Assembly (NCBI RefSeq): GCF_003334335.1
Contig: NZ_QOWQ01000122.1
From: Escherichia coli
GTDB taxonomy: Bacteria; Pseudomonadota; Gammaproteobacteria; Enterobacterales; Enterobacteriaceae
DNA length: 1,088 nt
Direction: 5' to 3' (one strand)
Part shown: piece after piece, positions 1 to 1,088 of the stretch
Layout of the letters: every line of letters starts with the position of its first letter
Position numbering within the stretch: the stretch's first letter is position 1
Program-made: the position numbers and the translations under genes
The notes under the pieces: generated by a model
What the model was told of the DNA's origin: nothing
The model's input: the letters and a program-made list of their open reading frames with translations, nothing else
Database searches by the model: none

Positions 1-228
1 GTCACCACCGCCGACATTCTGACGCCACGACGCCGGGAGGATTACGGTAAGGACCTGTGGAGTGCTTATCAGACCATTCAGGAGAATATGCTGAAAGGCG
101 GAATTTCAGGTCGCAGCGCTAAAGGAAAACGTATCCATACCCGTGCCATTCACAGCATTGACACTGACATTAAGCTCAACCGCGCATTGTGGGTGATGGC
201 GGAAACCCTGCTGGAGAGCCTGCGCTGA
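1..228 (+). CDS. 3' end of an upstream CDS (75 codons, TGA stop at 226-228); conserved island protein, possibly DUF932/YfjQ-like
   Basis: Frame 1 is the only frame open across 1-225; frame 2 hits TGA at 20-22 and frame 3 hits TAA at 48-50. Translation ends ...GISGRSAKGKRIHTRAIHSIDTDIKLNRALWVMAETLLESLR*. It is co-directional with and sits 54 bp upstream of the antirestriction gene, where DUF932-type genes are often found in such islands. Product assignment is from memory of that synteny and is tentative; the 5' end lies outside the window. Confidence 0.55.
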   Translation, partial: VTTADILTPRRREDYGKDLWSAYQTIQENMLKGGISGRSAKGKRIHTRAIHSIDTDIKLNRALWVMAETLLESLR

Positions 229-270
229 TTCAGCCATTACCCTGAAAACCACGCATTTATTTGTCCTTTA

Positions 271-275
271 AGGAG
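271..275 (+). promoter_or_regulatory. Shine-Dalgarno (AGGAG) for the antirestriction gene
   Basis: AGGAG at 271-275, 7 nt upstream of ATG at 283-285. Confidence 0.6.
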
Positions 276-282
276 TCATTTC

Positions 283-768
283 ATGAAAACCATTTCACAT
301 AATTCCACCACATCTTCTGTTTCCGTAACCGCTGCATCAGGGAATGACCAGCCTCAGTTGGTTGCCACCCTCGTCCCTGATGAACAGCGCATCAGCTTCT
401 GGCCGCAGCATTTTGGCCTCATTCCACAGTGGGTGGCCCTGGAGCCCCGTGTTTTCGGCTGGATGGACCGTCTGTGCGAAGACTACTGCGGTGGTATCTG
501 GAATCTGTACACCCTGAACAACGGCGGGGCATTTATGGCCCCCGAACCGGATGACGATGATGACGAAACATGGGTACTGTTCAATGCCATGAACGGCAAC
601 CGCGCTGAAATGAGCCCGGAAGCCGCTGGCATTGCTGCCTGTCTGATGACGTACAGTCATCACGCCTGTCGTACGGAGTGTTATGCCATGACGGTCCATT
701 ATTACCGGCTGCGGGATTACGCCCTGCAGCATCCGGAATGCAGCGCCATTATGCGCATCATCGACTGA
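283..768 (+). CDS. klcA: Antirestriction protein, KlcA/ArdB family (YfjX/YafX-like), 161 aa, complete
   Basis: Complete ORF from ATG 283 to TGA 766-768 with a canonical SD. The translation (MKTISHNSTT...FWPQHFGLIPQWVALEPRVFGWMDRLCEDYCGGIWNLYTLNNGGAFMAPEPDDDDDETWVLF...) matches my memory of KlcA/ArdB-type antirestriction proteins from E. coli cryptic prophages and IncP plasmids. Which paralog (yfjX, yafX or other) cannot be decided from sequence alone; 'klcA' is used as the family name. Confidence 0.9.
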   Translation: MKTISHNSTTSSVSVTAASGNDQPQLVATLVPDEQRISFWPQHFGLIPQWVALEPRVFGWMDRLCEDYCGGIWNLYTLNNGGAFMAPEPDDDDDETWVLFNAMNGNRAEMSPEAAGIAACLMTYSHHACRTECYAMTVHYYRLRDYALQHPECSAIMRIID

Positions 769-770
769 AT

Positions 771-775
771 GGAGG
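771..775 (+). promoter_or_regulatory. Shine-Dalgarno (GGAGG) for the RadC-like gene
   Basis: GGAGG at 771-775, 8 nt upstream of ATG at 784-786; it lies directly after the klcA stop, suggesting translational coupling or close co-expression. Confidence 0.6.
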
Positions 776-783
776 CAGGGACA

Positions 784-1088
784 ATGCAGCAGCTTTCCTT
801 TCTGCCCGGAGAAATGACGCCCGGCGAGCGCAGTCTCATTCTGCGGGCTCTGAAAACCCTGGACCGCCATCTTCATGAACCCGGTGTGGCCTTCACCTCC
901 ACCCGTGCGGCACGGGAATGGCTGATTCTGAACATGGCGGGACTGGAGCGTGAAGAGTTCCGGGTGCTGTATCTGAATAACCAGAATCAGCTGATTGCCG
1001 GTGAAACCCTCTTCACCGGCACCATCAACCGCACGGAAGTCCATCCCCGGGAAGTGATTAAACGCGCCCTGTACCACAATGCCGCTGC
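784..1088 (+). CDS. RadC-like JAB-domain protein (YeeS/YfjY/YkfG family, UPF0758), 5' portion; continues past the window end
   Basis: ATG 784 with a good SD; frame 1 stays open to the window end. The translation MQQLSFLPGEMTPGERSLILRALKTLDRHLHEPGVAFTSTRAAREWLILNMAGLEREEFRVLYLNNQNQLIAGETLFTGTINRTEVHPREVIKRALYHNAA... matches the conserved RadC C-terminal-domain pattern (E-F-x-V-L-x-L-[DN], LF-x-GT, V-x-PREV-x-K-x-AL-x-x-NA). The metal-binding JAB motif would lie just beyond position 1088. Paralog identity is undetermined, so no gene symbol is given. Confidence 0.88.
   Translation, partial: MQQLSFLPGEMTPGERSLILRALKTLDRHLHEPGVAFTSTRAAREWLILNMAGLEREEFRVLYLNNQNQLIAGETLFTGTINRTEVHPREVIKRALYHNAA

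Follow-up and report, generated by a model that had tools for sequence, protein, structure and literature searches.

The shared reading frame of ardB and a radC-like gene in an Escherichia coli CP4-type island is very probably incidental to an ordinary operon junction

An antirestriction gene and a radC-like gene follow one another in the window, the whole stretch of 1,088 nucleotides of Escherichia coli DNA that was analyzed, and are separated there by a TGA stop codon and a short linker in the same reading frame. We consider it very probable that the arrangement is an ordinary short intercistronic junction in an operon of a CP4-type E. coli island and that the common frame is incidental, as is the ATG next to the stop. 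Ribosomes would finish the antirestriction gene at TGA 766-768, and the radC-like gene would be initiated at ATG 784 from GGAGG 771-775, presumably by a newly bound 30S subunit or by the ribosome that has just terminated 15 nt upstream. Two by-products are to be expected, as the frame is shared and there is no second stop: read-through of the UGA by tRNA-Trp would yield a small fraction of a 325-amino-acid ArdB-RadC fusion, and a single-base change of the TGA to a sense codon would fuse the open reading frames (ORFs), such alleles being rare polymorphisms. The features of the window are located as follows.

1 to 228, plus strand: 3′ end of a DUF932-family gene of the same operon, with stop TGA at 226-228 (from the 99.8% identical Nissle 1917 locus).
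270 to 275, plus strand: AAGGAG, ribosome-binding site of the ardB/klcA-like gene, 7 nt before ATG 283 (direct reading).
283 to 768, plus strand: predicted ArdB/KlcA-type antirestriction gene, 161 amino acids, with stop TGA at 766-768 (ORF list, Pfam, PDB and PGAP).
769 to 783, plus strand: 15-nt intercistronic spacer ATGGAGGCAGGGACA, in frame and stop-free, containing GGAGG at 771-775.
769 to 771, plus strand: in-frame ATG abutting the stop, a possible minor alternative start for a 163-amino-acid, MEAGT-extended RadC-like protein.
784 to 1088, plus strand: 5′ part of a predicted RadC-like JAB/MPN-domain gene, 158 amino acids in full and cut by the window (PGAP start in Nissle 1917).

The upstream protein matched the complete Pfam Antirestrict model PF03230 (E value of 3.2e-37, residues 66 to 161, model positions 1 to 92 of 92). 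It also matched PDB entry 2WJ9, the ArdB protein of E. coli CFT073 PAI II, over its full length with no notable difference (E value of 1.4e-99, residues 1 to 161), and PGAP names the product of the 99.8% identical Nissle 1917 locus "antirestriction protein." By these matches, the upstream gene is a member of the ArdB/KlcA antirestriction family (PF03230) with a predicted antirestriction function. The preliminary description had called the gene klcA, and whereas the family was right, the type was not: KlcA of plasmid pBP136 (PDB 2KMG) was matched at an E value of 4.3e-21, and the product would therefore be of the chromosomal-island ArdB type. The K-12 proteins YafX and YfjX/LfgA have an island context in common with the ArdB of the window. 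For the downstream protein, the part within the window matched the NCBIfam RadC model at an E value of 7e-18, which is below the curated cutoff because the protein is truncated by the window. The full-length Nissle 1917 copy contained an AHNHPSG motif (metal-binding H-x-H-P-S-G), the full-length protein matched PDB entry 2QLC at an E value of 6e-26, and precomputed PF04002 matches are listed for its homologues. On the strength of these similarities, we assign the downstream gene to the RadC-like JAB family (PF04002), whose members in CP4-type cryptic prophages include YeeS, YkfG, and YfjY/LfgB.

Many E. coli genomes contain a locus 99.8% identical to the window. One such locus, in Nissle 1917, has the gene order Ag43 - ... 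- DUF905 - DUF932 - antirestriction - JAB - DUF987 - hypothetical - CbeA - CbtA; there, the annotated DUF932 domain-containing protein ends at the position matching the stop in the window, and the PGAP start of the JAB/RadC-like gene is the equivalent of ATG 784. We conclude that the window belongs to a well-known, polycistronic CP4-type island module, DUF932 - ardB/klcA - radC-like - DUF987 - cbeA/cbtA. Thousands of E. coli genomes already carry annotations of both genes, in this order and in this operon, and there are published studies of paralogues. The exact 80-nt junction was present in 1,514 E. coli records, with the two genes annotated in every listed row. When the whole window was compared with 5,426 E. 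coli genomes, it was found at 13,090 places in 4,824 of them, with a median of 3 and a maximum of 15 copies per genome. The same junction alleles occurred in copies with different ArdB N termini, a pattern that would fit frequent recombination or gene conversion between copies of the module. No promoter or terminator consensus was found in the window. An antisense ORF of 246 codons with a GTG start (337 to 1077, minus strand) spans both the ardB and the radC-like genes and probably results from codon bias in the two sense genes.

In the window, the junction reads ...ATC ATC GAC TGA ATG GAG GCA GGG ACA ATG CAG CAG..., and direct reading placed the stop at 766-768, the first ATG at 769-771, GGAGG at 771-775, and the second ATG at 784-786. 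The five codons between the TGA and ATG 784 (M E A G T) are all sense codons with zero stops among them, and the two ORFs share a frame because positions 283 and 784 are both 1 modulo 3. The preliminary description had given this same order of TGA, ATG, GAG GCA GGG ACA, and ATG 784 in one frame and had placed the Shine-Dalgarno sequence of the downstream gene within the linker; all of its coordinates were correct, and GGAGG does lie in the linker, 8 nt before ATG 784. No ribosome-binding site was present 5′ of ATG 769. A shared frame has an a priori chance of one in three, five codons are stop-free with a probability of about 0.82, and an ATG at one given codon has a probability of about 0.013 at the local base composition, this ATG having been singled out post hoc. 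We conclude that the layout is no more than chance would give.

Conservation was assessed in 80 loci carrying ArdB relatives of 61 to 95% identity from other Enterobacterales (one genome per species), at each of which the ardB stop and the radC start were located. The radC gene lay directly 3′ of ardB in 69 of the 80; in 8, an extra ORF of about 80 codons stood between the two genes, with a spacer of 228 to 270 nt, in 1 an insertion sequence (IS) separated them, and 2 had no radC gene. Spacers of the 69 adjacent pairs were 8, 9, 10, 11, 12, 13, or 15 nt long, and the compact junction with the downstream ribosome-binding site inside it, as first described from the window, was thus borne out at a spacer of 8 to 15 nt in 69 of 80 related loci. 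The frame was not conserved. Offsets of 0, 1, and 2 were found in 28, 12, and 29 of the adjacent pairs, an in-frame share that did not differ from one third by a binomial test (P = 0.20) on loci that are not phylogenetically independent, and in 22, 11, and 24 of the 57 distinct junction strings (P = 0.40). The in-frame fraction of the 69 pairs, 41%, was slightly and nonsignificantly above one third. The stop was TGA at 50 of the 69 related junctions, and the first base past the stop was G at 57, typically as TGAGGA or TAAGGA, where the window has A. In-frame junctions neither favored nor avoided TGA, which was used at 18 of 22 in-frame and 24 of 35 out-of-frame junctions, with no difference between them (P = 0.36).

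The ATG directly past the stop was found in E. coli and E. albertii alleles only; no relative outside Escherichia had it, nor did the CP4-6 and CP4-57 copies of K-12. The K-12 CP4-6 pair (yafX-ykfG) has TGA followed by the 15-nt spacer CCGAAGGAGCAACAG, in frame and without an ATG next to the stop. The CP4-57 pair (yfjX-yfjY) has TAA followed by the 8-nt spacer GGATACTC, out of frame. The N terminus M-Q/K/E-Q-L of the RadC-like protein was kept as the start in relatives. The peptide that the spacer would encode differed between alleles (MEAGT, MERST, KGAGT, PKEQQ, and PEEQR) by nonsynonymous changes, as expected of noncoding sequence constrained only to purine-richness. A TGA between operon neighbors in one frame should be taken as a sign of recoding only where relatives keep the frame, and here they did not. 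The significance that the preliminary description implied for the shared frame was therefore not upheld, nor was that implied for the ATG, which is confined to the Escherichia alleles. We conclude from the comparison that the conserved feature is the ribosome-binding site that begins right after the ardB stop and that this allele appears to have its common frame, and the ATG next to the stop, only incidentally.

Some of the related loci differed in other ways. The interposed ORF, of about 75 to 85 codons (e.g., MLYELSHLDALWDALGKTTVRDEDGDVVTDEPFLHFPTGTPLFHIWSWFESLHDGFVVAVKLYNTS...), was found in Trabulsiella, Enterobacter, Phytobacter, Cedecea, Kosakonia, and others, at about positions 1960 to 2200 of loci L017, L024, L029, L032, L034, and L038 and about 1957 to 2230 of L042 and L060; the copy in L024 contained an in-frame TGA. 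In Klebsiella pneumoniae ATCC 13883 (L055, about 1950 to 3200), an IS of about 1.2 kb with a transposase gene lies just past the start of the radC-like gene and parts that gene from ardB.

Pairs that are translationally coupled typically combine a short, conserved spacer with an adjacent ribosome-binding site, and this anatomy was found at the junction: the spacer is 15 nt in the window and 8 to 15 nt in relatives, and the ribosome-binding site comes right after the stop. Unlike classical coupled junctions, the stop and start do not overlap (as in ATGA or TAATG), and no RNA structure masks the ribosome-binding site. No unusual structure was found around the junction when positions 725 to 815 were folded (z = +1.14 versus shuffled controls), and the window had no Rfam match at an E value of 1 or less. 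An RNA structure hiding the ribosome-binding site and a SECIS-like element were both rejected on the fold and the empty Rfam search. With neither an overlap nor a masking structure, coupling of ardB to the radC-like gene is plausible, judged by the anatomy of the junction, but not required by it.

Published work on K-12 paralogues concerns the same pair of families. The paralogous yfjXY-ypjJ-yfjZF genes are cotranscribed as one operon, and a kan insertion in yfjX (lfgA) was polar on yfjY (lfgB), an effect of transcriptional polarity (PMC10846083). YfjY/LfgB complemented alone and is a protease acting on MqsA (PMC10846083), and ArdB_CFT, YafX, and YfjX, each expressed alone, showed antirestriction in vivo, by inhibition of type I restriction (PMC2836571). 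The radC-like gene of the window matches ykfG and lfgB in operon position, but it is a paralogue of lfgB and a separate gene, and the protease activity and the MqsA target are those of LfgB. In the current K-12 annotation, yfjX-yfjY-ypjJ-yfjZ-ypjF has become lfgABCDE; at 2775919-2776868 of NC_000913.3, yfjX is named lfgA (putative antirestriction protein) and yfjY is named lfgB (CP4-57 prophage protease), after PMC10846083. In the same record, the start given to lfgB is the first of two consecutive ATG codons (ATGATG), 8 nt past the TAA stop.

One alternative is that translation of the RadC-like gene begins at ATG 769 through termination-reinitiation at the TGA-ATG pair, in which case the protein would have 163 amino acids and GGAGG would be coding sequence. 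The ATG does abut the stop and is used in a few older annotations, such as AAN82119.1 of CFT073, and its position explains why some of these have a RadC-like protein of 163 rather than 158 amino acids. Against such a start, the ribosome-binding site is missing before ATG 769, and GGAGG lies at the ideal 8 nt from ATG 784, which is the start that PGAP uses. Moreover, the 163-amino-acid form was found on 9 contigs versus at least 1,000 for the 158-amino-acid form, the ATG is missing in every non-Escherichia relative and in both K-12 paralogues while M-Q/K/E-Q-L is kept, and the five extra codons vary nonsynonymously (MEAGT, MERST, and KGAGT). We regard ATG 769 as an improbable principal start, though from its position it could serve as a minor start for reinitiation.

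The preliminary description had raised the possibility that fused versions of the two genes exist and had proposed a search for variants with a sense codon in place of the TGA. The hypothetical 325-amino-acid read-through product was used as the query against 5.8 billion clustered proteins, and six in-frame proteins spanning both domains were found. The residue at the stop position was leucine in four (P0001, P0002, P0004, and P0005) and arginine in two (P0003 and P0006), and all but P0006, which has 275 amino acids and lacks the ArdB N terminus, were full length. In the DNA, the fused junction read GAC TTA ATG GAG AGA AGT ACA ATG, or the same with CGA replacing TTA, one base away from the common allele GAC TGA ATG GAG AGA AGT ACA ATG that is present in the second Nissle copy. 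A genetic-code artifact in which TGA is read as tryptophan under code 4 was ruled out by the leucine or arginine in the proteins and the TTA or CGA in the DNA. The six fusion proteins were 93 to 98% identical to the split genes, and all were singleton clusters from ENA or Logan assemblies or metagenomes, with none from NCBI genomes. Independent samples yielded the TTA allele on at least 13 contigs, whose backgrounds differed at 12 to 21 of 800 nt. The allele is real; it therefore either persists or arises repeatedly, and selection against it is not strong. Each of the two CGA alleles was a single contig, and the coverage of one (L094) was about 2-fold.

The fused alleles were rare by every count. 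The exact TTA junction was found in 0 of 5,426 complete E. coli genomes, whereas the separate ArdB and RadC proteins form 90% clusters of 11,164 and 6,367 member sequences, and the exact ArdB protein was on 302 contigs and the exact 158-amino-acid RadC-like protein on at least 1,000. With the read-through product as the query, no full-length two-domain protein was found among 1.84 billion representatives at 50% identity, in a search where fusions with each half below about 30% identity would score under the listed range; both halves were matched solely by chimeric fragments of 237 amino acids or fewer. Twelve long RadC representatives (244 to 435 amino acids) contained no Antirestrict domain, and among them one carried DUF932 and one a dynamin-type GTPase domain. 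On these two results, a divergent family of ArdB-RadC fusions with halves of about 30% identity or more was rejected. The match list from the 5.8 billion proteins also held fusions of other neighbors, namely, DUF932-ArdB (e.g., P0039, P0040, and P0050) and RadC-DUF987 (e.g., P0043, P0044, P0055, and P0058), as well as internal-deletion chimeras. Fusions of other neighbors were at least as frequent in that list, and sporadic fusion is therefore background in this island. The fused alleles fall within the diversity of E. coli and are one base from common alleles; they are thus derived and not ancestral. We conclude that fused versions exist as six single-base stop-loss sequences, with TTA and CGA as the sense codons, and that they are rare derived alleles that constitute neither a lineage nor a family. 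The preliminary description had added that, if there were no fused homologues, the arrangement would be just a compact intergenic junction; the reading as a junction holds, but the homologues are not absent, as sporadic mutants occur.

Most contigs with the TTA allele carried an IS66-family element (tnpA, tnpB, and a DDE transposase gene) about 77 nt 3′ of the radC stop, at 4043-6468 on L002 and L003 and at 1795-2055 on L095. The element cuts radC off from the DUF987 gene. One TTA-allele contig (L008) had no IS.

Read-through of the TGA could also be programmed, with a regulated fraction of ribosomes making a functional ArdB-RadC fusion beside the separate proteins. The earlier statement that read-through would yield such a fusion is correct by sequence, the product being a 325-amino-acid ArdB-W-MEAGT-RadC protein. 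RF2 binds UGAA relatively weakly, and the K-12 form of RF2 performs unusually poorly next to the B-type variant (PMC5373646); TGA followed by A, as in the window, is thus a relatively weak signal. UGA read-through in K-12 reporters was about 2% at 37°C and 4% at 25°C (PMC10570021). The frame of the linker is open, stop-loss fusions are tolerated in nature, and the majority of related junctions (50 of 69) use TGA. All the same, the frame is unconserved in relatives (28/12/29), in the K-12 paralogue pair yfjX-yfjY, the stop is TAA and the second gene is in another frame, in-frame junctions do not use TGA more often than out-of-frame ones (P = 0.36), and the linker peptide varies. Neither the fold nor the Rfam search turned up a stimulatory RNA structure or a known element, and paralogues of both proteins function singly (PMC2836571; PMC10846083). 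Modeled with AlphaFold2 from a shallow alignment of 35 locus-paired concatenated sequences, the read-through chain had two folded domains, a pTM of 0.46, and a disordered linker, with residues 163 to 175 below a pLDDT of 50; no confident packing of the domains was seen, a weak negative given the shallow alignment and a model scored by pTM and pLDDT and not by PAE.

Programmed stop codon read-through is known from the coat/A1 protein of phage Qbeta. The junction resembles that case in that an open extension in the same frame follows a UGA stop, but here the frame, the stop type, and the extension peptide are unconserved, and a stimulatory element was not found. Of the marks of recoding, the comparison thus revealed neither conservation of the frame nor a stimulatory RNA element or conserved 3′ context. 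A trace of ArdB-RadC fusion is expected from background UGA read-through of an open frame, nothing suggests that read-through is programmed or selected here, and we hold a regulated fusion to be very unlikely. The converse reading, that an ancestral single ArdB-RadC protein was recently split by a nonsense mutation to TGA and rescued by an internal start, would account for the shared frame and for the restoration of a single ORF by one base change, but we give it next to no credence: in other genera, each of the 69 adjacent pairs consists of two genes, every one with a ribosome-binding site and a start of its own, and most of the pairs are out of frame; the search of 1.84 billion representatives revealed no fused family; and the fused alleles lie within the range of E. 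coli variation, at 93 to 98% identity.

At an ordinary junction, the two proteins could still have a joint role. That ArdB and the adjoining RadC-like JAB protease act together seems very unlikely to us, and the strict adjacency of ArdB to a JAB protease and the indirect mechanism of ArdB make it a thread with some potential. Assays of ArdB antirestriction in vivo were reportedly made in K-12-type hosts, and K-12 carries ykfG and yfjY. The gene almost invariably found beside ardB encodes a protease (PMC10846083). If the two proteins did cooperate, the recurrent TGA-to-TTA fusion would be a natural "Rosetta stone" for their partnership, be it physical or functional, and a tethered form could come from low-level read-through of the UGA.

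Sequences of another kind also joined the two genes. Chimeras encoded by several E. coli assemblies of NCBI had an N-terminal portion of ArdB joined to a C-terminal portion of RadC via internal in-frame deletions; among them were P0008, P0013 (in which ...GGAFMAPE runs into MTPGERSL...), P0024, P0027, P0021, and P0025, the last in reverse order. The hexamer ATGACG is present in both genes of the window, near 551 and 813, which suggests that the chimeras arose by short-repeat deletion or as assembly artifacts. Chimeric sequences may bridge the ArdB and RadC families in clustering. The RadC-like 90% cluster that contains P0273 included 161-amino-acid members named "antirestriction protein" (P0280 and P0287).
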